This document shows, one piece after another, positions 1 to 26,993 of a stretch of DNA of 64,000 bases. Location: NCBI RefSeq assembly GCF_048403405.1, contig NZ_CP183129.1; one strand, written 5' to 3'. A model generated the notes under the pieces. It was not told the DNA's origin and searched no databases. It worked only from the letters and a program-made list of their open reading frames with translations. Position 1 is the stretch's first letter, and every line of letters begins with the position of its first letter. This DNA comes from Escherichia coli (GTDB lineage: Bacteria; Pseudomonadota; Gammaproteobacteria; Enterobacterales; Enterobacteriaceae). A program made the translations under genes and the position numbers.

Positions 1-2
1 AT

Positions 3-551
3 CCGGTCAGCGATAACGCGGCGCTGACTGGGTTAAGTAAGCTTTTCCGGCACATTCAACCCGCCGTGAACGATCCTCAGGATCTGCGCGCAAAACTGGA
101 AATGCTGTGGGCGTCTTACTATGGCGGCGTAGCGATAACCCATGCGGGCACGCATCTCGTTCATGCGCTCTCCTACCCGTTAGGTGGCAAATATCATCTG
201 CCGCATGGCGTCGCGAATGCCATCTTGCTGGCGCCGTGCATGGCGTTTGTTCGCCCCTGGGCGGTCGAGAAATTTGCCCGGGTCTGGGATTGCATTCCCG
301 ATGCGGAAACCGCCCTGAGCGCGGAAGAAAAATCTCATGCCCTGGTGGCCTGGCTACAGGCATTAGTCAATCAACTCAAGCTACCCAACAATCTCGCGGA
401 TCTCGGCGTACCGCCAGAGGATATTGCCTCTCTTAGCGAGGCGGCACTGAACGTGAAGCGCCTTATGAACAATGCGCCGTGCCAGCTTGATCTACAGGAC
501 GTACAGGCCATTTACCAAACACTGTTTCCGCAACATCAATTTAAGGAATAA
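3..551 (+). CDS. Iron-containing alcohol dehydrogenase family protein, C-terminal part (gene continues upstream of the window)
   Basis: Open frame runs from the window edge to the stop at 551. The His-rich motif THAGTHLVHALSYPLGGKYHLPHGVANAILL resembles the metal-binding region of FucO/YqhD-type Fe-ADHs. The stop lies 3 nt before the next start codon. Confidence 0.6.
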   Translation, partial: PVSDNAALTGLSKLFRHIQPAVNDPQDLRAKLEMLWASYYGGVAITHAGTHLVHALSYPLGGKYHLPHGVANAILLAPCMAFVRPWAVEKFARVWDCIPDAETALSAEEKSHALVAWLQALVNQLKLPNNLADLGVPPEDIASLSEAALNVKRLMNNAPCQLDLQDVQAIYQTLFPQHQFKE

Positions 552-554
552 ATC

Positions 555-1442
555 ATGCCGAAAACCATTGAAGGTGTATTAACCGCCATCGTCACCCCGT
601 TTACCGCGACCGGCAGTCTGAATATCCCGGCGTTAAAAGTGCAGGTGAATCGTCAACTGGAAGCGGGTAACGCGATTTTTTGCGGCGGCACCAACGGCGA
701 GTTTTTTGTGTTGAATGAACAGGAGAAGCTCAGCGTTACGCAAACCTGCGTGGATGAAGTGGCTGGTCGTGCGCCGGTCGTGGCACACATTGGCGAGATC
801 TCGACGCGCGAAACGATTCGTCTGGGTCAGCAGATTGAAAAACTTGGCGTAGATGCTGTGTCGGTCATTACCCCTTACTTCGTACCGCTGAAACAGGAAG
901 AGTTGATTGCGCATTACAGCGCAATTGCCGACGCGCTGAGCATTCCGATGTTTCTCTATAACATCCCGGCCCGCACTGGCAATACGATCCAGCCGGAAAC
1001 CGCGCGTGCTCTGGCGTCGCATCCCAATATCATTGGGATTAAAGACAGCGCCGGAAGCGACGAAAGCCTGAAGGGTTTTCTCGATGCTGTGCGCAACATT
1101 GACGGCTTTAATGTACTCAACGGCCCGGATTCGCTGATCCATAAAGGGTTTGTCGAGGGGTGTTCAGCCTGTATCTCTGGGCTCGCCAACGTCGCACCGC
1201 GGGAAATCAATGCTATCTGGTCTCGCGTCCATGCCGGTGATATTGAAGGGTCTTATGAAGCACAGGAGAGTGTAACGGGCCTGCGTACCGACCTTTATAA
1301 AGTAGCGTTCTCCCCGGCTGCGGTGAAAAAAGCGTTGCAGCTTATGGGGCATGATGTTGGTGATAGCCGCTACGCGGTTAATTTCACGCCTGAACAGATC
1401 AGCGAGATTCAACAAATTATTCGTCATTATAACATTAATTAA
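555..1442 (+). CDS. DHDPS/N-acetylneuraminate-lyase family class I aldolase
   Basis: 295 aa. GGTNGEF motif resembles GTTGES of DapA; PYF and IIGIKDSAG contain the conserved Tyr and the Schiff-base Lys context of the DapA/NanA/KDG-aldolase family. RBS AAGGA lies upstream. Confidence 0.7.
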   Translation: MPKTIEGVLTAIVTPFTATGSLNIPALKVQVNRQLEAGNAIFCGGTNGEFFVLNEQEKLSVTQTCVDEVAGRAPVVAHIGEISTRETIRLGQQIEKLGVDAVSVITPYFVPLKQEELIAHYSAIADALSIPMFLYNIPARTGNTIQPETARALASHPNIIGIKDSAGSDESLKGFLDAVRNIDGFNVLNGPDSLIHKGFVEGCSACISGLANVAPREINAIWSRVHAGDIEGSYEAQESVTGLRTDLYKVAFSPAAVKKALQLMGHDVGDSRYAVNFTPEQISEIQQIIRHYNIN

Positions 1443-1501
1443 ATTAACTCTATTATCCAGCCCGCGATAAAGTTTAGATAAAGAGAATAAAGGATTACTC
1501 C

Positions 1502-2260
1502 ATGTTTTTGTGGTTTATGCAGCCAGATATCTGGCTCACTTTAATTACCCTCACCTTTCTGGAAATTATTCTTGGGGTGGATAATATTATTTTTCTTTCA
1601 CTGGTGGTGGCAAAACTTCCGTTATCACAACAAAATATGGCGCGTAAACTGGGTTTAAGCTGCGCGATGATTATGCGGATATTATTGCTGATATCCATTG
1701 CGTGGCTTTCACATATTACCCAGCCGCTTTTTACCGTGCTGACGCTGGAGATTTCGTTCCGCACGTTGATTCTGCTCGGGGGCGGGCTGTTCCTGATTTA
1801 TAAAGCGATACAGGAGATACGCGAAGAGCTGTCGCCCGCGCAGGAAGACGAACATGGCAGCGGATCGCGGCAACTGTCGTTGTGCGGTGCCATCGTACAG
1901 ATAATGCTGCTCGATATCGTGTTTAGCCTGGATTCGGTGATCACCGCCGTCGGCCTTTCTCAGCATATATTTATCATGATTGCCGCCGTAATGATTGCCG
2001 TCGGTGTCATGATGTTTGCGGCGAAAACAATTGGTGATTTCGTTAACGCCACGCCGTCAATAAAAATACTGGCGTTAACCTTTTTATTATTTGTCGGTGT
2101 ATTGCTGGTTGCCGATAGTCTCAACATTCATATTGCCAAAGAGTATCTCTACTTCGCGATATTTTTCTCATTAAGTGTTGAGACACTCAATATTATCCGT
2201 GAAAGAAGAAATAAAAAAGTTTCGACATTGATCGAAACGCATGAATCGCACTCGCATTAA
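1502..2260 (+). CDS. TerC/YgdQ-like (UPF0053) integral membrane protein
   Basis: 252 aa polytopic protein with LEIILGVDNIIFLSLVVAKLP and LDIVFSLDSVITAVG motifs typical of the TerC family. AAAGGA RBS. Visibly lower G+C (about 40 percent by eye) than its neighbours. Confidence 0.6.
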   Translation: MFLWFMQPDIWLTLITLTFLEIILGVDNIIFLSLVVAKLPLSQQNMARKLGLSCAMIMRILLLISIAWLSHITQPLFTVLTLEISFRTLILLGGGLFLIYKAIQEIREELSPAQEDEHGSGSRQLSLCGAIVQIMLLDIVFSLDSVITAVGLSQHIFIMIAAVMIAVGVMMFAAKTIGDFVNATPSIKILALTFLLFVGVLLVADSLNIHIAKEYLYFAIFFSLSVETLNIIRERRNKKVSTLIETHESHSH

Positions 2261-2295
2261 TAAATCTATTACCGACTTTAAGATGGAGTCTAACT

Positions 2296-3465
2296 ATGTC
2301 TGTAGCCCTTATTCGTGACGGCGTCATCCGTCCATCCGAAAACGATTCGCATGTGCTTACCGCCATGCTGCCCTCGTCCTGCCCACAAAACCACGCGGCG
2401 AATATTCTGCCTTTGCCGGATGGCGCGTTAATGTGCGTCTGGTTTGCGGGAACGCAGGAAGGTATTGCCGATATTTCTGTCTGGGGATCGCGATTGCCCG
2501 CTGGCGGGATGCAGTGGAGCGATGCGGTCAAACTTTCCCACGATGACACGCGTTCAGAGCAAAACCCAGTGCTGTTTCTCGCGCCGGATAACGTGCTGTG
2601 GCTGCTATGGACCGCACAAATATCCGGGAATCAGGACACCGCCATCGTCCGCTACCGTAAGTCAGACGACCTCGGACAAACCTGGGGCGAGATTGCCACG
2701 CTGCTCGATAAACCCGGCACGTTCATTCGCCAGCCGATCACGGTGCTTGATAACGGCAACTGGCTGCTGCCCGTCTTTTATTGCCGTACCCAACCCGGTG
2801 AAAAATGGGTCGGCAATGATGATATCAGCGCAGTGAAAATTTCCGCTGACGGTGGTCACTCCTGGCGCGATGTCGTGGTGCCGCAAAGTCTCGGCTGCGT
2901 TCATATGAATATCACAATGCTGCACGACAGTACGTTGGTTGCTCTCTTTCGAAGCCGTTGGGCAGACAACATCTATATCAGCCATTCAGTGGACAACGGC
3001 GAGAGTTGGTCGGTGCCGCAAGCTACCGAATTGCCCAACAACAATTCGTCTATTCAGGTAACGACGCTTGCCAGCGGCGAACTGGCGCTGGTGTACAACG
3101 CGATGAGTGCGGCAGGCGCAGTAGAACGTCGCGCGTCGCTTTATGACGAAATCGACGATGGCGACGACAGCCGCAAAGAACCGACAGCCGTCGGACGCTC
3201 CGCTTTCTGGGGGGCCCCACGCGCGCCGATGACGGTAGCGATTTCTGCCGATGGTGGGAAAAGCTGGCCGTGGCGGCGCAATCTCGATGAAGGCGACGGC
3301 TACTGCATGACCAACAATTCCCTGGAAAAGCTAAATCGTGAGTTCTCCTACCCCAGCATCAAACAAAGCCCGGACGGTACGCTACATATCGCTTACACCT
3401 GGTGGCGTCAGGCCATCAAGTACGTGCGCATCTCCCCCGAGTGGGTTAAGGGGCAGGCATCATGA
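2296..3465 (+). CDS. BNR/Asp-box repeat sialidase-like beta-propeller protein (GH33-like), apparently cytoplasmic
   Basis: 389 aa with four Asp-box motifs (SDDLGQTW, SADGGHSW, SVDNGESW, SADGGKSW). The N-terminus has no hydrophobic signal peptide. GGAG RBS. Confidence 0.65.
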   Translation: MSVALIRDGVIRPSENDSHVLTAMLPSSCPQNHAANILPLPDGALMCVWFAGTQEGIADISVWGSRLPAGGMQWSDAVKLSHDDTRSEQNPVLFLAPDNVLWLLWTAQISGNQDTAIVRYRKSDDLGQTWGEIATLLDKPGTFIRQPITVLDNGNWLLPVFYCRTQPGEKWVGNDDISAVKISADGGHSWRDVVVPQSLGCVHMNITMLHDSTLVALFRSRWADNIYISHSVDNGESWSVPQATELPNNNSSIQVTTLASGELALVYNAMSAAGAVERRASLYDEIDDGDDSRKEPTAVGRSAFWGAPRAPMTVAISADGGKSWPWRRNLDEGDGYCMTNNSLEKLNREFSYPSIKQSPDGTLHIAYTWWRQAIKYVRISPEWVKGQAS

Positions 3466-3932
3466 TTATCGGTAATCTCAACCATTTGTCGCTGGCGGGG
3501 CTTCCCGCCTGGGTGAGAAATATTCTGCTGTGCCCGGAGTGTTCGTTATCGGCGTTATCCGCCAGAGAGGACGGTCGCTGGCAACCTGAAGGATGTCGGT
3601 GGTTCTGCACGCTGGGAACTTCAGACACGCAACCCGCCGAACTCCGCCATACGGAGTATCACCATCTGTGGGCCGATATCCAGGTGGTGATTACTGGTTG
3701 TGAGGGCATTAATGCGGGAACGCGGCCCATCGCTCGCGAAAACGATGAAGAACGTAAGCCCGATCTGTTTATCGCCCCATCCCCTGAAAACAGTGTCGCC
3801 ATCACTCTACACCCCGGTGATTTCGCCGTCTTTATGCCTGAGGAACCTCACCAGGCGCTGTGCGCGATTGGCGCGGCTACGTCAGTACGCAAAGCGGTCT
3901 TTAAGGTACCGCGCGACATGCTGGAAGCCTAA
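3462..3932 (+). CDS. YhcH/YjgK/YiaL (DUF386) family protein, NanQ/EbgC-like
   Basis: 156 aa. C-terminal GDFAVFMPEEPH closely matches the conserved motif of E. coli YhcH. Start codon overlaps the upstream stop (ATGA), suggesting translational coupling. Confidence 0.65.
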   Translation: MIIGNLNHLSLAGLPAWVRNILLCPECSLSALSAREDGRWQPEGCRWFCTLGTSDTQPAELRHTEYHHLWADIQVVITGCEGINAGTRPIARENDEERKPDLFIAPSPENSVAITLHPGDFAVFMPEEPHQALCAIGAATSVRKAVFKVPRDMLEA

Positions 3933-3945
3933 AAGGAGAGAAAAA

Positions 3946-5226
3946 ATGACAATGGAAATGATCCTGGCATTAGGAATACTGGTCCTGATGATCGTGCTGA
4001 TCATGTCGGACAAAATGCCATTTGGCGCACCGCCACTGCTTGCGTGTTTATTGCTGGTTGTCTCGGGACTTTCGACCGTTCAACAGGCTTTTGCCGGATT
4101 CGTCAATCCAAGCGTGGTGATGATTGCAGGGTTTATGGTGGTCATGGCAGCGCTACAAAAAACCCGGCTTATCAGCAACGTTAAATCTGCGATGATAAGC
4201 CTGGTCAATAAAGGCAGTTACCGCAGCTACGGGCTGTTGTTAGTCATTGTTATGCTGGGTGCCAGTCTTGCAGGCACCGGCGCGACCGGTTATTACGTGC
4301 TGATTCTGTCGCTGGTATCCACCATTCCGTACAGTAAAAAGCTACCAACATCGAAATTAATGATGCCCCTGGGATTTGCCACCAACCACCCGCTTCTTCC
4401 TATCAATCTCGCGCTTCTCTTTGGCGTTACGGCGACCGTACTCGAAACCGCGGGTTTTCATCAGGAGATTTCGATGGGGCGCTTTGCGCTGGTGAATCTC
4501 ATCATGTCAGCGGCGTTCCTCGCATGGAGTCTTATTGCCTACCGTTTTCTTCCGGATCATCCCATTGCGGATGCTTCCGAGGATGCGCTGGCGGCACGCG
4601 AGGAAACGTTTAACGCCCTTCCTGCCTGGAAAGAATATTGCACTATTGCCGCATTCGCTGTCAGCGTTATCGGCATGATGCTAATGAACATTCTGGGAAA
4701 TATCGCCTTCGTTATTCCGGGTCTTGCGGGTGCGTTTGTTCTGATGATCGATGTACTGGACTTTAAAGAAGTTCGCGATCATATGGGAGCGCCGGTCATT
4801 TTAATGATGGCGGGGGTGATCGGTGTAGCTGATGCACTGGCGGGCACCGGCTTTACGGCGATGGTTGGCGATGCCGTTGCAGGTGTGCTCGGTTCTGGCG
4901 TCTCACCGTTTGTATTTATTGTCGCCTTTGCTTTGCTTACCAGTACCTGCGCCACCTTCACGGGTTCGAATATGGGGTCTGTTTATATTTTTGCCCCCAT
5001 CGCCATTGCCGCCTGTACCAGCCTTGGGCTTAACCCGACCGCTGCAGCGATTGCGGTGGTGATTTCAGGCTGGAACGGCGGCTATATGCCTATTGACGGA
5101 ATGCCAGCCATGATCCTCGGAATGGGGAAATACAAACTTCCCGAATTCTGGGTGTTCTCTGTACCAATGTATCTCATCCGCATTCTGGCGCTTTGTGCAG
5201 GCGCTGTTTTTATCTTCCCAATGTAA
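3946..5226 (+). CDS. Polytopic permease with two-repeat architecture (ion-transporter superfamily-like; exact family unresolved)
   Basis: 427 aa from the ATG preceded by a strong AAGGAG RBS; the ORF track's longer 508-aa frame overlaps the upstream gene. Multiple hydrophobic segments and an internal repeat (NPSVVMIAGFMVV / GAPVILMMAGVIGV). Confidence 0.5.
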   Translation: MTMEMILALGILVLMIVLIMSDKMPFGAPPLLACLLLVVSGLSTVQQAFAGFVNPSVVMIAGFMVVMAALQKTRLISNVKSAMISLVNKGSYRSYGLLLVIVMLGASLAGTGATGYYVLILSLVSTIPYSKKLPTSKLMMPLGFATNHPLLPINLALLFGVTATVLETAGFHQEISMGRFALVNLIMSAAFLAWSLIAYRFLPDHPIADASEDALAAREETFNALPAWKEYCTIAAFAVSVIGMMLMNILGNIAFVIPGLAGAFVLMIDVLDFKEVRDHMGAPVILMMAGVIGVADALAGTGFTAMVGDAVAGVLGSGVSPFVFIVAFALLTSTCATFTGSNMGSVYIFAPIAIAACTSLGLNPTAAAIAVVISGWNGGYMPIDGMPAMILGMGKYKLPEFWVFSVPMYLIRILALCAGAVFIFPM

Positions 5227-5233
5227 TCTCAGA

Positions 5234-5271
5234 CAAAAAAAGCGGCAGAGAAGATCCCTGCCGCTTTTTAT
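5234..5271. terminator. Bidirectional rho-independent terminator between the convergent permease gene and nagE
   Basis: A-tract, GC hairpin AGCGGCAG...CTGCCGCT, then T-tract. Confidence 0.55.
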
Positions 5272-5314
5272 TGTTGGATGCGACGCTGCCGTGTCGCATC
5301 AGGTATAAAGCAGA

Positions 5315-7261
5315 TTACTTTTTGATTTCATACAGCGGCGTTTGACCCGCCACGACATGGCCCTGAGCTTTAATGATCAAGCCGCTGAAATCGTCGATAT
5401 TGCTGCAAACCACCGGGCTAATCATCGAGCGGGCGTTAGCGTTCAGGTAATCCAGATCCATTTCCAGAATCGGTTGTCCTGCGCTTACCTGCGCGCCCTC
5501 TTCCACCAGACGTTTAAAACCTTTACCTTCCAGCGCTACGGTGTCGATACCCATATGGACGACGATCTCCGCGCCTTTTTCGGTTTCCAGGCAGAACGCG
5601 TGGTTGGTATTGAAGATTTTCACGATTGTCCCTGCGGCTGGTGATACGACGATTTTATCTGTCGGTTTCACCGCCACACCGTCACCCACCGCTTTGCTGG
5701 CGAATGCTTCGTCAGGAACCTGATCCAGTGCCACAACATCACCGGTAATCGGCGATACCAGCTCCGCGACAGACACCGCGTTTGGTATAGCCTGCGGTTT
5801 TGCTACAGGCGCGGCAGTTGCAGGCGCAGTTTCAGCTGACGTAGCGGCTACCGGACCACGGGCAACAACTTTCTTCATTGCATCGCCAATGGATTCCGCT
5901 TTCGCGCCAACAATCACCTGAATAGTCTGTTTGTTCAGTTTCACTACCCCAGAAGCACCCAGCCGTTTACACATCGCATCGTTGACGCGAGCCGAGTCAA
6001 CCACGGTCAGGCGCAGACGAGTAATACAGGCGTCAATTGCTTTCAGGTTGTCAGTGCCGCCAACCGCAGCAATATAGTTGGTCGCCAGTTGATTGAGGCC
6101 TTCTTCAGTGTTGCTGTTGGCTTCTTCAGTAACGATCTCATCTTCTTTATCTTCACGACCCGGCGTTTTCAGGTTGAACATGCGGATAACCAAACTGAAC
6201 ACCACGAAGTAGATAGCGAAGAAGACAACACCCATCACCAGCAGCATCCAGACGTTCTGGCTGGCGGCCGGCAGGTTATACATCAACGCGTAGTCGATAG
6301 CCCCCGCAGAGAAGGAGAAGCCCGCGTGGATACCCAGCAGCGTTGCCACAAACAGGCTGATACCGGTCAGCAGTGCGTGCAGGAGGTACAGCAGCGGCGC
6401 AAGGAACATGAACAGGAATTCCAGCGGCTCAGTCACACCGGTCAGGAACGCAGTAACAGCAACAGAAAGCAGCATACCGCCAACCATCGGACGACGCTCT
6501 TTCGGTGCTGCAAAGTACATCGCCAGCGCCGCACCCGGCAGACCGAACATCATGATCGGGAAGAAGCCGGACATGAACATCCCCGCGGTGCCGTCACCGG
6601 CATAGAAGCGGTTGATGTCACCGTGGAAAACCGTACCCGCCGCGTTGGTGAATTCACCAATCTGGAACCAGGCGATGGTGTTCAGTACCTGATGCAGACC
6701 GGTTGGGATCAGCAGACGGTTGATGAAACCAAAGATACCGGAACCCAGCGCGCCCGCAGAAACGATCCACTCGCCGCCTGCATGGATAGCGTGCTGTACC
6801 GGCGGCCAGACGTAACCAAAAATGGCCGCCAGCACCAGGCAGAAGAAGCCGGTGGCAATCGGCACAAAGCGTTTGCCGCCGAAGAAACTCAGGAAGTCCG
6901 GCAGTTTAATATCGGACCAACGGTTATAAGCTGCGCCACCAACCAGACCGGTAATGATACCCGCCAGTACACCCATGTTAATTTCCGGGTTGATGGTCAC
7001 CATCGCTTTGGTTAACACAAAGTAACCTACCGCACCCGCCAGCGCCGCCGCACCTGCGCTGTCTTTCGACCAGCTGGATGCCACACCGATGGCGAAGATT
7101 AATGCGAGGTTATCAAAAATCGCACCGCCCGCCTGGGCAATAAACGCAACGTTAAGTAAATCTGGCTGACCGAATCGCAGCAACAGCGCCGCCACCGGCA
7201 GCACCGCGATAGGGAGCTGTAACGCCCTACCGAGTCGCTGGAAAAAACCTAAAATATTCAT
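5315..7261 (-). CDS. nagE: PTS N-acetylglucosamine-specific EIICBA component
   Basis: 648 aa; sequence and position divergent from nagB match E. coli NagE. Confidence 0.93.
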   Translation of the reverse strand: MNILGFFQRLGRALQLPIAVLPVAALLLRFGQPDLLNVAFIAQAGGAIFDNLALIFAIGVASSWSKDSAGAAALAGAVGYFVLTKAMVTINPEINMGVLAGIITGLVGGAAYNRWSDIKLPDFLSFFGGKRFVPIATGFFCLVLAAIFGYVWPPVQHAIHAGGEWIVSAGALGSGIFGFINRLLIPTGLHQVLNTIAWFQIGEFTNAAGTVFHGDINRFYAGDGTAGMFMSGFFPIMMFGLPGAALAMYFAAPKERRPMVGGMLLSVAVTAFLTGVTEPLEFLFMFLAPLLYLLHALLTGISLFVATLLGIHAGFSFSAGAIDYALMYNLPAASQNVWMLLVMGVVFFAIYFVVFSLVIRMFNLKTPGREDKEDEIVTEEANSNTEEGLNQLATNYIAAVGGTDNLKAIDACITRLRLTVVDSARVNDAMCKRLGASGVVKLNKQTIQVIVGAKAESIGDAMKKVVARGPVAATSAETAPATAAPVAKPQAIPNAVSVAELVSPITGDVVALDQVPDEAFASKAVGDGVAVKPTDKIVVSPAAGTIVKIFNTNHAFCLETEKGAEIVVHMGIDTVALEGKGFKRLVEEGAQVSAGQPILEMDLDYLNANARSMISPVVCSNIDDFSGLIIKAQGHVVAGQTPLYEIKK

Positions 7262-7593
7262 CTTATTCCCCCTACGAGAACCCTATTTGGCTCGTTTAAA
7301 GCCGTATTTTTATTTTGCTGCAAATTGTACTGCCGATGTTCTGTAATCAGATTGTTAGATCATCTGCTACAGAGTGTGTGAAAATTTAATTCGTATCGCA
7401 AATTAAACGCGTGTCTTTTGTGAGTTTTGTCACCAAATATCGTTATCATCACTCCCTTTTACTGGCTAAACCAGAAAACTTATTTTATCATTCAAAAAAT
7501 CAGGTCGGATTGACGCCTGTCTGCGCAAATCCAGGTTACGCTTAAAGATGCCTAATCCGCCAACGGCTTACATTTTACTTATTGAGGTGAATA
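7262..7593. promoter_or_regulatory. Divergent nagE / nagBACD control region with CRP site and NagC operator-like palindrome
   Basis: CRP-like site TGTGAgttttgTCACC at 7419-7434; AT-rich palindrome TTAATTCGTATCGCAAATTAA at about 7386-7406 resembles a NagC operator. Confidence 0.55.
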
Positions 7594-9602
<2,009 letters not shown>

Positions 9603-9610
9603 GAGAAAGT

Positions 9611-10831
9611 ATGACACCAGGCGGACAAGCTCAGATAGGTAATGTTGATCTCGTAAAACAGCTTAACAGCGCGGCGGTTTATCGCTTGATTGACCAGTAC
9701 GGGCCAATCTCGCGGATTCAGATTGCCGAGCAAAGCCAGCTTGCCCCCGCCAGCGTAACCAAAATTACGCGTCAGCTTATCGAACGCGGGCTGATTAAAG
9801 AAGTTGATCAGCAGGCCTCCACCGGGGGCCGCCGCGCTATCTCTATCGTCACCGAAACCCGCAATTTCCACGCAATCGGCGTACGGCTTGGTCGTCACGA
9901 CGCCACCATCACTCTGTTTGATCTCAGTAGCAAAGTGCTGGCAGAAGAACATTACCCGCTGCCGGAACGTACCCAGCAGACGCTGGAACATGCCCTGCTG
10001 AATGCCATTGCTCAGTTTATTGATAGCTACCAGCGCAAACTGCGCGAGCTGATCGCCATTTCCGTGATCCTGCCAGGACTTGTTGACCCGGACAGCGGCA
10101 AAATTCATTACATGCCGCATATTCAGGTAGAAAACTGGGGGCTGGTAGAAGCTCTGGAAGAACGTTTTAAAGTGACCTGTTTCGTCGGTCACGATATCCG
10201 TAGTCTGGCGCTGGCGGAGCACTACTTCGGTGCAAGTCAGGATTGCGAAGACTCCATTCTGGTGCGTGTACATCGCGGAACCGGGGCCGGGATTATCTCT
10301 AACGGGCGCATTTTTATTGGCCGCAACGGTAACGTCGGTGAAATTGGCCATATTCAGGTCGAACCGCTGGGTGAACGCTGCCACTGCGGCAACTTTGGCT
10401 GCCTGGAAACTATCGCCGCCAACGCTGCCATTGAACAACGGGTGTTGAATCTGTTAAAGCAGGGCTACCAGAGCCGTGTGCCACTGGACGACTGCACCAT
10501 CAAAACTATCTGCAAAGCCGCGAACAAAGGCGATAGCCTGGCGTCGGAAGTGATTGAGTATGTCGGTCGTCATCTGGGCAAAACCATCGCCATTGCTATC
10601 AACTTATTTAATCCGCAAAAAATTGTTATTGCCGGTGAGATCACCGAAGCCGATAAAGTGCTGCTCCCTGCTATTGAAAGCTGCATTAATACCCAGGCGC
10701 TGAAGGCGTTTCGTACTAATCTGCCGGTGGTACGTTCTGAGCTGGATCACCGCTCGGCAATCGGCGCTTTTGCGCTGGTAAAACGCGCCATGCTCAACGG
10801 TATTTTGCTCCAGCATTTGCTGGAAAATTAA
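9611..10831 (+). CDS. nagC: ROK-family transcriptional regulator of the nag regulon
   Basis: 406 aa; N-terminal HTH then ROK sugar-kinase-like domain; synteny. Confidence 0.93.
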   Translation: MTPGGQAQIGNVDLVKQLNSAAVYRLIDQYGPISRIQIAEQSQLAPASVTKITRQLIERGLIKEVDQQASTGGRRAISIVTETRNFHAIGVRLGRHDATITLFDLSSKVLAEEHYPLPERTQQTLEHALLNAIAQFIDSYQRKLRELIAISVILPGLVDPDSGKIHYMPHIQVENWGLVEALEERFKVTCFVGHDIRSLALAEHYFGASQDCEDSILVRVHRGTGAGIISNGRIFIGRNGNVGEIGHIQVEPLGERCHCGNFGCLETIAANAAIEQRVLNLLKQGYQSRVPLDDCTIKTICKAANKGDSLASEVIEYVGRHLGKTIAIAINLFNPQKIVIAGEITEADKVLLPAIESCINTQALKAFRTNLPVVRSELDHRSAIGAFALVKRAMLNGILLQHLLEN

Positions 10832-10878
10832 TGTGCTTTTATAGTGGCGCTTATTGTTGTCAATATTCTGGGTAGTCC

Positions 10879-11631
10879 ATGACCATTAAAAATGTAATTT
10901 GCGATATCGACGGCGTGCTGATGCACGATAACGTCGCCGTACCGGGTGCAGCGGAATTTTTGCACGGGATTATGGATAAAGGCCTGCCGCTGGTGTTGCT
11001 GACCAACTATCCTTCGCAGACCGGGCAAGATCTGGCGAACCGCTTTGCCACTGCCGGTGTCGATGTACCGGATAGCGTGTTTTATACCTCCGCGATGGCA
11101 ACCGCCGATTTCCTGCGTCGCCAGGAAGGCAAGAAAGCATATGTGGTGGGCGAAGGCGCACTGATTCATGAACTGTACAAAGCCGGTTTCACTATTACCG
11201 ATGTGAACCCTGATTTTGTGATTGTTGGCGAAACGCGTTCCTACAACTGGGACATGATGCATAAAGCAGCCTATTTCGTCGCTAACGGTGCACGCTTTAT
11301 CGCCACCAACCCGGACACCCACGGGCGCGGTTTTTATCCCGCGTGTGGCGCGTTGTGTGCAGGCATCGAAAAAATCTCCGGGCGTAAACCGTTCTATGTT
11401 GGTAAACCGAGTCCGTGGATCATCCGCGCAGCATTAAACAAAATGCAGGCGCATTCGGAAGAAACAGTGATTGTCGGCGATAACCTGCGTACCGATATTC
11501 TGGCGGGCTTCCAGGCCGGTCTGGAGACGATTCTGGTACTCTCTGGCGTTTCGTCGCTCGACGATATCGACAGTATGCCATTCCGCCCCAGCTGGATTTA
11601 CCCATCGGTCGCTGAAATCGACGTTATCTGA
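10879..11631 (+). CDS. nagD: HAD-superfamily UMP phosphatase
   Basis: 250 aa; DxDG HAD motif (ICDIDGVL); synteny after nagC. Confidence 0.9.
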   Translation: MTIKNVICDIDGVLMHDNVAVPGAAEFLHGIMDKGLPLVLLTNYPSQTGQDLANRFATAGVDVPDSVFYTSAMATADFLRRQEGKKAYVVGEGALIHELYKAGFTITDVNPDFVIVGETRSYNWDMMHKAAYFVANGARFIATNPDTHGRGFYPACGALCAGIEKISGRKPFYVGKPSPWIIRAALNKMQAHSEETVIVGDNLRTDILAGFQAGLETILVLSGVSSLDDIDSMPFRPSWIYPSVAEIDVI

Positions 11632-11636
11632 ATAGC

Positions 11637-11670
11637 AACCACGCCTCAGGGCGTGGTTTCTTATTTTTAC
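11637..11670 (+). terminator. Rho-independent terminator after nagD
   Basis: Hairpin CCACGCC-tca-GGCGTGG followed by a T-rich run. Confidence 0.55.
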
Positions 11671-11887
11671 CCATCATTAAAATTCACCCATTCAATAAAA
11701 CCCGCCAAAAATTATCGATTCATCAATAAATACACCTCCACACCCTACCCTTTTTCATTAATCAGCAATCACCATTACGTTTTTTATTTACCCCCTGCCA
11801 AATCGCTTGCGTACAGTGCTGCTTTGCGGCATTTTTTTAAACAAGCAAACACAACAAGCAACAAATACCAGGTTAACGGAGAAGGTT

Positions 11888-14757: not shown

Positions 14758-15342
14758 ATGAATTATCAGCTATTCTCACCATTCTTTACCAAAGTCATCA
14801 TGCTGCTTATCGCATTGCTTTGCATTGTTCTTGCCTCATTTGGTATTTCTGCCCCATTTTGTTACATCGTTTTTATCGGCATCATTTTCCCCGTTGCTAT
14901 ATCAATGCGCATACACCGTCTCAATGAAACAGGAACAGCACTCACACTAACCGAAAGCTCACACTGGATCGTTTACATCCATGGTTTTCCAGCTGAGGAA
15001 CAACGTGAAGTTTTGAAAAACCCCTGTTTCTGGTCAACAGAAAGAGTGAAACAGTTTTTCCTTCGCGGTCTTGCTGGCAAGGTTATTCTTCAACTCGCCT
15101 GCCTTGCACTTCTGGTCAATGAATATTTCCGCTCAACACCAGGTTCCGGGCAAGACTTACTCGCAGCAGGCGTGCTGTTTTTTATTTTGTTTTCGATAAG
15201 CAAAAATTTCTGGACGATGTATCTTCTCGCCACAGATAAATGGCAGTGCGAATCCCTGACCACCACCAGCGGTAGCCTTTGGTATCAGGGATTTCTGTGT
15301 AAAGGAAACAGAAGAGTTACGCTGTTTTCGCGGCTGGTGTAA
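14758..15342 (+). CDS. Hypothetical small polytopic membrane protein (194 aa), AT-rich, no recognisable family
   Basis: ORF with AAGGA RBS 8 nt upstream; about four predicted hydrophobic helices. G+C roughly 40 percent by eye against about 50 percent for neighbours. Stop lies 6 nt from the convergent ubiF stop. Confidence 0.45.
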   Translation: MNYQLFSPFFTKVIMLLIALLCIVLASFGISAPFCYIVFIGIIFPVAISMRIHRLNETGTALTLTESSHWIVYIHGFPAEEQREVLKNPCFWSTERVKQFFLRGLAGKVILQLACLALLVNEYFRSTPGSGQDLLAAGVLFFILFSISKNFWTMYLLATDKWQCESLTTTSGSLWYQGFLCKGNRRVTLFSRLV

Positions 15343-22282: not shown

Positions 22283-22327
22283 TCCCTTCTTATCGTGCCG
22301 GAATACATCCCGTATTTCGGCACGCTC

Positions 22328-22357
22328 ACCGGATGCGGCATCAGTGCGTTATCCGGA
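22328..22357. repeat. REP-like palindromic element (imperfect)
   Basis: ccGGATGCGGCatcagtGCGTTATCCGG resembles the E. coli REP consensus; sits in the lnt-gltI intergenic region. Confidence 0.4.
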
Positions 22358-22678
22358 TAACAAAATTCCCCTATCCAACTTTGGCACATCTATTGCTTTG
22401 TTATACAAGGCAAAGCTTGAACCAGCATCAGTACAACCCGGTTGCACCACAGCAATCCACGGGTAGCACCAAAAGAGTGCATTTTAAGAATTTTGCTTCG
22501 GAATGGTGCGGCGCATCTCGCAAAAACAAACAATAAAACAGCAATATCTTTACATTTAACCAAACTAAATGTTACCTAACAGGCACAACACTGCACAATA
22601 AAGTTGCAGACGATAACAACACAAACACTCACAACAGGTATCCATGCGTTCTTAACGCAGAAGATAAAGGAGTTGGAT

Positions 22679-23587
22679 ATGCAATTACGTAAACCTGCCA
22701 CAGCAATCCTCGCCCTGGCGCTTTCCGCAGGACTGGCACAGGCAGATGACGCCGCCCCGGCAGCGGGCAGTACGCTGGACAAAATCGCCAAAAACGGTGT
22801 GATTGTCGTCGGTCACCGTGAATCTTCAGTACCTTTCTCTTATTACGACAATCAGCAAAAAGTGGTGGGTTACTCGCAGGATTACTCCAACGCCATTGTT
22901 GAAGCAGTGAAAAAGAAACTCAACAAACCGGACTTGCAGGTGAAACTGATTCCGATCACCTCACAAAACCGTATTCCACTGCTGCAAAACGGCACTTTCG
23001 ATTTTGAATGTGGTTCCACCACCAATAACGTCGAACGCCAAAAACAGGCGGCTTTCTCTGACACTATTTTCGTGGTCGGTACGCGCCTGCTGACCAAAAA
23101 GGGCGGCGATATCAAAGATTTTGCCGACCTGAAAGACAAAGCCGTAGTCGTCACTTCCGGCACTACCTCTGAAGTTTTGCTCAACAAACTGAATGAAGAG
23201 CAAAAAATGAATATGCGCATCATCAGCGCCAAAGATCACGGTGACTCTTTCCGCACCCTGGAAAGCGGTCGTGCCGTTGCCTTTATGATGGATGATGCCC
23301 TGCTGGCCGGTGAACGTGCGAAAGCGAAGAAACCAGACAACTGGGAAATCGTCGGCAAGCCGCAGTCTCAGGAAGCCTACGGTTGTATGTTGCGTAAAGA
23401 TGATCCGCAGTTCAAAAAGCTGATGGATGACACCATCGCTCAGGTGCAGACCTCCGGTGAAGCGGAAAAATGGTTTGATAAATGGTTCAAAAATCCAATT
23501 CCGCCGAAAAACCTGAACATGAATTTCGAACTGTCAGACGAAATGAAAGCACTGTTCAAAGAACCGAATGACAAAGCACTGAACTAA
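22679..23587 (+). CDS. gltI: Glutamate/aspartate ABC transporter periplasmic binding protein
   Basis: 302 aa from MQLRKPATAILALA (signal peptide) with AAGGAG RBS; ORF-track N-terminal extension rejected. Confidence 0.93.
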   Translation: MQLRKPATAILALALSAGLAQADDAAPAAGSTLDKIAKNGVIVVGHRESSVPFSYYDNQQKVVGYSQDYSNAIVEAVKKKLNKPDLQVKLIPITSQNRIPLLQNGTFDFECGSTTNNVERQKQAAFSDTIFVVGTRLLTKKGGDIKDFADLKDKAVVVTSGTTSEVLLNKLNEEQKMNMRIISAKDHGDSFRTLESGRAVAFMMDDALLAGERAKAKKPDNWEIVGKPQSQEAYGCMLRKDDPQFKKLMDDTIAQVQTSGEAEKWFDKWFKNPIPPKNLNMNFELSDEMKALFKEPNDKALN

Positions 23588-26949: not shown

Positions 26950-26993
26950 TCACTCGCCGGATGACATCACGCCATCCGGCACCACTCATTTCA

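Follow-up and report, generated by a model that had tools for sequence, protein, structure and literature searches.

A nine-gene island between glnS and nagE of Escherichia coli and its proposed role in the catabolism of an acidic 2-keto-3-deoxy sugar

The stretch analyzed here, a 64,000-nucleotide window from Escherichia coli (contig NZ_CP183129.1, assembly GCF_048403405.1), begins within a gene island that ends next to nagE. We propose that this island is a catabolic unit for an imported acidic 2-keto-3-deoxy sugar, most likely 3-deoxy-D-lyxo-hept-2-ulosaric acid (Dha) of the plant polysaccharide rhamnogalacturonan II (RG-II), and we give this proposal an even chance of being right. Its general architecture, in which an acid sugar is split into pyruvate and a C4 acid and the latter is converted to dihydroxyacetone phosphate (DHAP), seems rather probable to us, and the assignment of Dha itself as the substrate is tentative and falls somewhat short of even. 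Dha is a seven-carbon sialic acid analogue found in side chain D of RG-II (PMC6811678).

The island and its limits

The original prediction described six co-directional genes that converge on nagE, and the ORF listing bears this out. All six are encoded on the + strand of window positions 1–5226, with a 3-nt gap between the first two genes, an ATGA overlap at 3462 and a 13-nt gap before the last gene. The family labels given to them were likewise confirmed by family searches. The features of this part of the window are as follows (positions are window positions unless a locus is named).

1..551, + strand: iron-containing alcohol dehydrogenase (Fe-ADH, 385 aa), of which the C-terminal 183 codons lie in the window (ORF; full gene at L001 13394–14551)
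555..1442, + strand: class I aldolase of the DHDPS/NAL superfamily, 295 aa (ORF and NCBIfam)
1502..2260, + strand: TerC-family integral membrane protein, 252 aa, YkoY/YjbE-like with a score under the cutoff
2296..3465, + strand: BNR_2 six-bladed sialidase-fold protein, cytoplasmic, 389 aa (ORF; Pfam BNR_2, 1e-63)
3462..3932, + strand: YhcH/YjgK/YiaL (DUF386) protein, 156 aa (TIGR00022, 97 bits against a cutoff of 45.5)
3946..5226, + strand: IT-superfamily anion permease, 426 aa, 'SLC13 family permease' in RefSeq (ORF; the RefSeq start agrees)
5227..5235, no strand: right-hand island boundary; homology to island-free E. coli restarts at 5232–5235, just past the permease stop (alignment with the K-12 spacer)
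5236..5314, − strand: core-genome 3′ region of nagE with an A-run/GC-stem/T-run hairpin of bidirectional terminator shape, common to K-12 (alignment)
5315..7261, − strand: nagE, the flanking core gene outside the island (ORF and RefSeq annotation), followed in the window by nagBACD and asnB

The view of these six genes as the unit stands insofar as they form an accessory catabolic operon absent from K-12; they are only a part of it, as the full island contains nine genes. The complete genome annotation and alignment delimit an island of ~9.1 kb (~9.13 kb) at positions 10104–19234 of L001, a longer genomic stretch that spans the whole island and both flanks, corresponding to window positions −3896 to 5234. 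The gene order is glnS(−) / DeoR(−) PdxA2(−) DtnK(−) / divergent promoter / Fe-ADH(+) aldolase(+) TerC(+) BNR_2(+) YhcH(+) permease(+) / nagE(−). The window start splits the island such that its right-hand two thirds lie inside, and DeoR, PdxA2, DtnK and the 5′ two thirds of Fe-ADH, whose gene begins 606 bp before position 1, lie outside. In K-12, nagE is indeed directly followed by glnS across a spacer of 202 bp. The claim that the cluster occupies the place of glnS did not hold, however: RefSeq annotation shows an intact glnS in the K-12 orientation 3.9 kb left of the window start, and glnS is thus displaced by the island, not missing. Alignment with K-12 shows that the island stands in place of ~43 bp of the nagE-glnS spacer. 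The partial megablast matches of ~490 island-free E. coli genomes begin exactly at 5232–5235, which fixes the right boundary independently of the K-12 alignment. The island does not display the features of a mobile genomic island: the annotation lists no integrase or transposase gene among its nine genes, there is no tRNA at the junction and no flanking direct repeat of at least 7 bp at its ends, and its GC content of 52.4% does not deviate from the 51–52% of the flanks.

The full stretch is present in 1046 of 5426 complete E. coli genomes (about one fifth), always on the chromosome and at the same site. Carriers include strains of the B2 lineage such as 536, UTI89, sequence type 131 (ST131), avian pathogenic E. 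coli (APEC) O18, E2348/69 and Nissle 1917, and the stretch is 100% identical in E. coli GN02461 and others. In the water isolate AGR4587 (NZ_CP097360.1), an IS1 transposase is inserted within the island, and the match falls into two pieces spanning 6.1 kb. The locus, with glnS upstream in the K-12 orientation and widespread in B2 strains, is nevertheless not a characterized one. A comparative paper of 2026 (PMC12928451) lists the region as "GR 6 nagE..glnS", classes it as uncharacterized and found it complete in all seven compared strains (APEC O1, IMT5155, RS218, IHE3034, 78-Pyelo, CFT073 and LF82). It also reports three GR 6 homologues clustered with an ABC transporter in Sinorhizobium meliloti and proposes that the PdxA2/DUF1537 pair serves the synthesis of pyridoxal phosphate. 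This latter proposal is at odds with the curated D-threonate equivalog models that both proteins match. A literature search returned no functional study of the island locus and no paper on Dha catabolism, and we know of no breakdown route for Dha.

Protein families and the proposed pathway

The two enzymes of the left arm exceed the cutoffs of curated equivalog models: DtnK (RefSeq name dtnK) scores 532.5 against a cutoff of 450 with the D-threonate kinase model NF047819, and PdxA2 scores 681 against 583 with the D-threonate-4-phosphate dehydrogenase model NF002891 and is 75% identical to the reference PdxA2 (PMC12928451). The chemistry assigned to them follows the NCBIfam names and the review PMC10971088, which describes a D-threonate pathway of DtnK and PdxA2 with a kinase of the DUF1537 family (Zhang et al. 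2016 PNAS, cited there) and places DenK and 4-hydroxy-L-threonine kinase activities within the same family. The island resembles this pathway, which ends in DHAP and CO2, in that its left arm holds both enzymes together with DeoR. In contrast to it, the pair is joined to a module of aldolase, reductase and sialidase-fold protein, and the left arm (DeoR-PdxA2-DtnK) encodes no transporter of its own. The C4 acid should therefore arise inside the cell from the aldolase product, and D-threonate would be an internal intermediate and not the growth substrate.

Both arms may be controlled together. The divergent intergenic region between dtnK and the Fe-ADH gene (~170 bp, L001 13225–13393, 600–770 bp left of the window start) contains TCAATCA/TGATTGA half-sites, which in many genera form the perfect 14-bp palindrome TCAATCATGATTGA with a second site ~95 bp off. 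The TCAATCA/TGATTGA palindrome lies between the arms in 40 of the 42 loci with divergent layout, compared to a background of 0.3 per kb. It is a candidate DeoR operator that fits one regulon over both arms, and the island is probably DeoR-controlled. A scan of the island for promoters and terminators gave counts equal to the shuffled expectation and was hence uninformative.

The aldolase carries the catalytic motifs of the DHDPS/NAL class I superfamily (Schiff-base lysine, Tyr/Thr), with K163 as the Schiff-base lysine in GIKDSAG and GTNGE and YN motifs that align with DapA and NanA; its top PDB matches are DHDPS, YagE and NAL. Among the curated NCBIfam models, DapA scores best (TIGR00674, 191.1 bits; cutoff 206.15), and the NanA, HpaI-type and KdgD models follow behind it. 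Both NanA cutoffs are missed (TIGR00683, 114 against 382 bits; PRK04147, 148 against 281 bits), and the DHDPS-type HpaI model reaches 144 bits. With E. coli DapA the protein shares 32% identity, and its motif YNIPARTG aligns an arginine with R138 of DapA, where NanA (YNIPxxxG) has a leucine. In DapA, the arginine at this position binds the distal carboxylate of aspartate semialdehyde, and the enzyme joins pyruvate and a four-carbon aldehyde-acid to the C7 skeleton of 4-hydroxy-2-oxoheptanedioate. The proximity to DapA and the DapA-type arginine, as judged from the alignment, would lend independent support to a C7 dicarboxylate as the substrate. Almost every cluster-linked aldolase, even at 38% identity, retains the arginine of YNIPxRTG. 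We considered the protein as a paralogue of DapA and rejected this, as it scores below the cutoff and stands in a catabolic operon, and as the strain is expected to possess its own dapA, a gene seen in K-12.

Fe-ADH passes no equivalog cutoff, and its top NCBIfam scores, at 213–218 bits, are those of ErcA, lactaldehyde reductase and 4-hydroxybutyrate dehydrogenase; its PDB relatives are FucO and methanol dehydrogenase. It is the one oxidoreductase that the unit invariably contains. Its relatives are reducers of aldehydes, namely the lactaldehyde reductase FucO, 1,3-propanediol oxidoreductase and 4-hydroxybutyrate dehydrogenase.

The BNR_2 protein has no signal peptide in its sequence. Its AlphaFold model (pLDDT, a predicted local confidence score, of 93.5) has the six-bladed β-propeller sialidase fold of GH33, and structure comparison of this predicted model returned true exo-sialidases as all of its closest folds. 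In neither sequence nor fold does it belong to GH143, the family of BT1020 with a five-bladed propeller, and a sequence search gave nothing below E 0.1 in the PDB and no NCBIfam match. The alignment of the family profile places R219 and R309 at arginine positions of sialidases and the nearly invariant Y352 at that of the nucleophilic tyrosine. We infer that BNR_2 either cleaves small Dha glycosides inside the cell, as an ulosonic-acid ketosidase, or is a related ring-processing enzyme. BT1020 (GH143), the Dha-hydrolase of the RG-II system of Bacteroides thetaiotaomicron (PMC6811678), likewise has a Dha ketoside as its substrate and is a sialidase-like β-propeller, and by analogy it would supply or parallel the proposed first step of the island pathway. 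Many fungi have no GH143 (bioRxiv 10.64898/2026.03.13.711244), which leaves room there for another Dha-releasing family. [quoted passage not shown]

The YhcH protein is 36% identical to K-12 NanQ by alignment and scores below the NanQ equivalog NF040884 (91.5 against a cutoff of 160), so that only the model of the broad YhcH/YjgK/YiaL subfamily is passed. We propose that it assists the pathway as an anomerase or by helping to open the ring of the ulosonic acid. The permease is a weak CitMHS/Na_sulph_symp member (dass, 56.7 bits against a cutoff of 198.6; Pfam CitMHS, 1e-21; Na_sulph_symp, 3.5e-12) and is proposed to import the acidic substrate. A paralogy with the strain's own CitT was considered and dropped, as the two have no significant similarity.

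Several constraints converge on the nature of the substrate. DHDPS-family lyases release pyruvate (C3), and the unit's sole enzymes for the later steps convert a C4 acid, D-threonate, to DHAP; pyruvate and a C4 acid product together make a C7 substrate. The aldehyde that is reduced to threonate must already bear a carboxylate, so the substrate would be a dicarboxylate. The aldol adduct of pyruvate and 2,3-dihydroxy-4-oxobutanoate is 4,5,6-trihydroxy-2-oxoheptanedioate, which is the skeleton of Dha. Fischer projections worked by hand show that the D-lyxo configuration at C5/C6 of Dha leads to D-threo-tetruronate, which matches the isomer handled by DtnK and PdxA2; as the threo form is C2-symmetric, its reduction yields D-threonate.

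In the pathway we propose, Dha, either free or as a small glycoside, would be imported by the IT-superfamily permease. BNR_2 would free or ring-process the ulosonic acid in the cytoplasm, with the NanQ-like YhcH speeding anomerization and ring opening. The DapA-like class I aldolase would split the C3–C4 bond to give pyruvate and D-threo-tetruronate (2,3-dihydroxy-4-oxobutanoate), which Fe-ADH would reduce to D-threonate. DtnK would then phosphorylate D-threonate, and PdxA2 would oxidatively decarboxylate 4-phospho-D-threonate to DHAP and CO2. The net conversion would be Dha + ATP to pyruvate + DHAP + CO2, and the scheme would be redox-neutral because Fe-ADH consumes the NADH made by PdxA2. 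The original prediction had also considered a keto-deoxy sugar acid, with reduction of the aldolase product; the wider evidence favours this option and sharpens it to a C7 dicarboxylic ulosonic acid. The pathway as proposed is a new combination of known enzyme families and is unassigned in the literature searched. It resembles the E. coli nan system in importing an ulosonic acid, opening its ring and cleaving it with a class I pyruvate lyase, with three families in common. It differs in having no NanT, NanE and NanK, in feeding a reduced aldehyde into a C4-acid pathway and in its substrate, which is probably a C7 dicarboxylic acid. Among non-phosphorylative aldolase routes, YagE/YjhH with FucO (Dahms-type) similarly combine a pyruvate lyase on a 2-keto-3-deoxy acid with an Fe-ADH-type reductase for the aldehyde, and the HpaI/HpcH 4-hydroxy-2-oxoheptanedioate aldolase, with reduction of succinic semialdehyde, uses a deoxy analogue of Dha. 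Unlike these routes, the island encodes neither a dehydratase nor a sugar dehydrogenase, its front end consists of a sialidase-fold protein and YhcH, and its reduced product would be phosphorylated and decarboxylated, not excreted.

Linkage of the genes across species

We surveyed one genome per species, which gave 561 BNR_2 relatives, and mapped the best 80 loci with the island proteins on all ORFs. BNR_2 homologues of at least 76% identity occur in Klebsiella, Kosakonia, Pantoea, Pluralibacter, Yersinia and Aeromonas, and there are ~240 representative BNR_2 clusters at E ≤ 1e-30. The hosts of the best 80 loci include the Enterobacterales Dickeya, Pectobacterium, Erwinia, Pantoea, Rahnella and others, the gut-associated Gilliamella (bee gut) and Lonepinella (koala), the Firmicutes Bacillus and Paenibacillus, the Alphaproteobacteria Bradyrhizobium and Methylobacterium as well as Propionivibrio, Tolumonas and a Vibrio. 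They are mostly plant-associated, soil or pectinolytic organisms, among which we count Dickeya, Pectobacterium, Pantoea, Erwinia, Kosakonia, Gilliamella, Bacillus, Paenibacillus, Bradyrhizobium, Methylobacterium and a fungal contig.

Aldolase, Fe-ADH, kinase and PdxA2 are all located within 9 kb of BNR_2 in 52 of the 80 loci, and none of the four is present in 20. The gene order is shuffled in Bacillus, Paenibacillus, Lonepinella, Propionivibrio and a metagenome contig. It reads DtnK, PdxA2, Fe-ADH, BNR, permease, aldolase in Paenibacillus; aldolase, Fe-ADH, SSF, BNR, sigma54-regulator, DtnK, PdxA2 in Bacillus; and DtnK, PdxA2, aldolase, Fe-ADH, TAXI-TRAP, BNR, YhcH in Lonepinella. As these orders differ between distant lineages, the linkage of the five core genes is functional and does not reflect inherited synteny. 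On the metagenome contig, a BNR_2 of 46% identity stands with Fe-ADH, aldolase, GntR, kinase and PdxA, adjoined by an ABC-transporter operon that ends in an esterase and TerC.

The transporter is the variable part of the cluster. An SSF transporter is encoded in 62 of the 80 loci and a DASS-like transporter in the versions of E. coli, Klebsiella spallanzanii, Kluyvera, Aeromonas and Paenibacillus; TAXI-TRAP (Lonepinella, Vibrio), ABC with an SBP_bac_5 binding protein and, on the fungal-type contig, MFS transporters also occur, and the Aeromonas version adds a KdgM-family porin. This exchange among five transporter types, together with the porin, argues for an organic anion as the substrate. 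In Paenibacillus ginsengihumi (L079 11256–12620), the permease shares 76% identity with its counterpart in the E. coli island and the neighbouring enzymes only 30–62%, which suggests from sequence comparison that the permease gene was transferred across phyla.

Further observations concern single groups of loci. An Abhydrolase_3/BD-FAE esterase recurs near the cluster, namely in the metagenome ABC operon with TerC (L014 2645–4661) and in Pantoea (L004/L022, ~1370–2600), and could act on the substrate as a lactonase or de-esterase. A contig with fungal-type transcription factors (L013 7955–13634) encodes a BNR_2 of 49% identity, with DHDPS and PdxA homologues within 6 kb and an MFS transporter ~1 kb further (all within 8 kb), and neither kinase nor Fe-ADH was detected there; a part of the pathway thus seems to exist in fungi. 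In Erwinia and Pantoea sp. A4 (L044 5983–8390; L046; L049 3446–7422), the aldolase and SSF genes are separated by a gene for a D-2-hydroxyacid dehydrogenase and by one or two genes for acid-sugar transporters of the ACS family (DgoT/GarP-like). In Lonepinella koalarum (L072 16318–21099), another DHDPS and another BNR protein, both distant (27% and 26% identity), are encoded together on the opposite strand, probably as a separate sialic-acid-type cluster next to the main one.

Alternative explanations and significance

A number of points weigh against the Dha pathway as drawn. An SDR gene follows YhcH in 50 of the 62 SSF-type clusters and in none of the 6 with the DASS-like permease, and the Dha scheme does not explain it. 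TerC, which also occurs in Klebsiella, Kluyvera, Aeromonas and metagenome clusters at differing positions (three arrangements), recurs with the pathway and yet has no place in the scheme. SSF-BNR_2-SDR stand without the aldolase arm in Bradyrhizobium and in one Pantoea clade, so the front end can work without that arm. Given the SDR, TerC, the lone SSF-BNR_2-SDR set and the operon insertions, the scheme does not explain the front end of the pathway. Dha was chosen as the only natural C7 2-keto-3-deoxy-aldaric acid known to us, which is an argument from ignorance. The most distant aldolases, alphaproteobacterial and fungal, are devoid of the DapA-type arginine. In the profile alignment of BNR_2, the arginine of the N-terminal RIP motif is replaced by NHA with the invariant His33, and His203 takes the position of the glutamate partner of the nucleophilic tyrosine; from its invariance, R371 might stand in for the missing arginine of the triad. 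If free Dha is imported, the glycosidase-like BNR_2, a core gene, is left without an obvious job. Finally, the identity between the kinase of the island and DtnK of Salmonella is only 40% (PMC12928451), which keeps D-erythronate or 4-hydroxy-L-threonine in play as its substrate.

In the Pantoea clade (L036, L037, L039, L040, L069; ~6250–11850), the trio without aldolase, kinase and PdxA2 adjoins the genes of a TtdR-like LysR regulator and of a true tartrate dehydrogenase, which scores 574 bits against a cutoff of 470, a context that hints at an oxidative branch or another substrate; this neighbourhood is confined to the one clade and is a single evolutionary event. For Bradyrhizobium, we considered an enolase-superfamily neighbour as the D-tartrate dehydratase TarD, an identity that would have tied the SDR to an oxidative branch from Dha to D-tartrate. 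Its best PDB matches were 2ovl (putative racemase) and 3,6-anhydro-L-galactonate cycloisomerase, so this candidate was rejected and the link to D-tartrate failed.

The original prediction favoured a non-canonical route for a sialic-acid-like nonulosonic (C9) acid, i.e. N-acetyl- or N-glycolylneuraminic acid, Kdn or an anhydro or dehydro form, whose hexose or hexosamine product would be reduced by Fe-ADH. The NAL superfamily, the sialidase fold and YhcH/NanQ are indeed shared with sialic acid metabolism, NanT, NanE and NanK are not among the nine island genes, and B2 carriers inhabit sialylated mucosa. Such a substrate now appears very improbable to us, given that the aldolase fails the NanA cutoffs and is DapA-like with a carboxylate-binding arginine, that YhcH fails the NanQ cutoff, that a C6 product is of no use to the tightly linked DtnK and PdxA2 and that the hosts are mainly plant and soil bacteria. 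Moreover, the E. coli carriers presumably have canonical nan genes elsewhere, as seen in K-12. It is also unlikely, though a little less so, that two unrelated modules merely adjoin each other, that is, a D-threonate set (DeoR-PdxA2-DtnK, as in Salmonella) and a separate acid-sugar module, e.g. one converting Kdo to pyruvate and D-arabinose with the reduced aldehyde leaving the pathway. DtnK and PdxA2 are self-sufficient elsewhere, the arms are divergently transcribed, the SSF-BNR_2-SDR front end occurs alone and sialidase-like Kdo hydrolases exist (PMC3573668). Against this, the four genes behave as all or none (all four in 52 and none in 20 of the 80 loci), they are interleaved on one strand in Firmicutes and Pasteurellaceae, the left arm has no transporter and the palindrome is shared between the arms. 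Kdo itself was rejected as the substrate, as its aldolase product D-arabinose (C5) is unconnected to the linked C4-acid enzymes.

The architecture could also serve another C7 substrate, such as a stereoisomer leading to D-erythronate, a 6-amino analogue leading to 4-hydroxy-L-threonine or an undescribed plant or microbial acid sugar. The low identity of the kinase to characterized DtnK, the further kinase activities within DUF1537 (PMC10971088) and the unexplained SDR, TerC and esterase genes, which hint at chemistry beyond the Dha scheme, speak for this option. It nonetheless seems rather unlikely to us when set against the D-threonate equivalogs that both lower enzymes pass and the high identity of PdxA2 to its reference. 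We also know of no alternative C7 compound of that kind. A serious alternative of a different sort, which we hold to be doubtful, assigns BNR_2 a non-hydrolytic role: it may be a mutarotase or ring-opening catalyst on free Dha, like the β-propeller NanM on Neu5Ac (N-acetylneuraminic acid), or a hydratase or lactonase on an anhydro, 2,3-ene or lactone form that arises from a broken Dha ketoside. The cytoplasmic location of BNR_2, transporters (DASS-like, TAXI-TRAP) that suit small dicarboxylates and the two substituted catalytic positions His33 and His203 are in line with this, as is the finding that heating alone frees side chain D, Araf-β-1,5-Dha (Araf, arabinofuranose; bioRxiv 10.64898/2026.03.13.711244), which indicates a very labile Dha ketoside. 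On the other hand, the nucleophilic tyrosine and two arginines align with those of sialidases, the closest folds are true exo-sialidases and YhcH already fills the anomerase role.

Elsewhere in the window, three further differences to K-12 were noted. At 26950–26993, ybeL is directly followed by rihA, where K-12 has a 7.9-kb block (ybeQ, ybeR, djlB, ybeT, ybeU, djlC, hscC). A hypothetical ORF of 194 aa is present at 14758–15342 between the tRNA Met-Leu-Gln cluster and ubiF, and the glnX-ubiF distance in K-12 is only 153 bp. The gltI-lnt spacer (~22300–22700) does not contain the IS5D copy found there in K-12.

The island is a conserved "B2-only" region of E. coli, found in uropathogenic E. coli, ST131, APEC, the enteropathogenic strain E2348/69 and the probiotic Nissle 1917. 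If the Dha pathway is correct, which we hold to be slightly less likely than not, it would be the first catabolic pathway for Dha and would include a new intracellular sialidase-fold family that acts on a seven-carbon ulosaric acid. It would fill a gap in the mineralization of RG-II, the most complex plant polysaccharide, provide a physiological source of D-threonate and represent a diet-linked gut niche factor of B2 E. coli, with cross-feeding on fragments of pectin that Bacteroides or cooking has set free. Should Dha prove to be the wrong substrate, the tight linkage of the five genes in several bacterial phyla would still point to an acid-sugar pathway yet to be described. The pathway would also give a new activity to a large family of intracellular "sialidase family proteins". 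Proteins of the BNR_2 type carry the name exo-alpha-sialidase in thousands of genomes, some of them of pathogens, where this label implies a virulence factor; the name would then be a misannotation.

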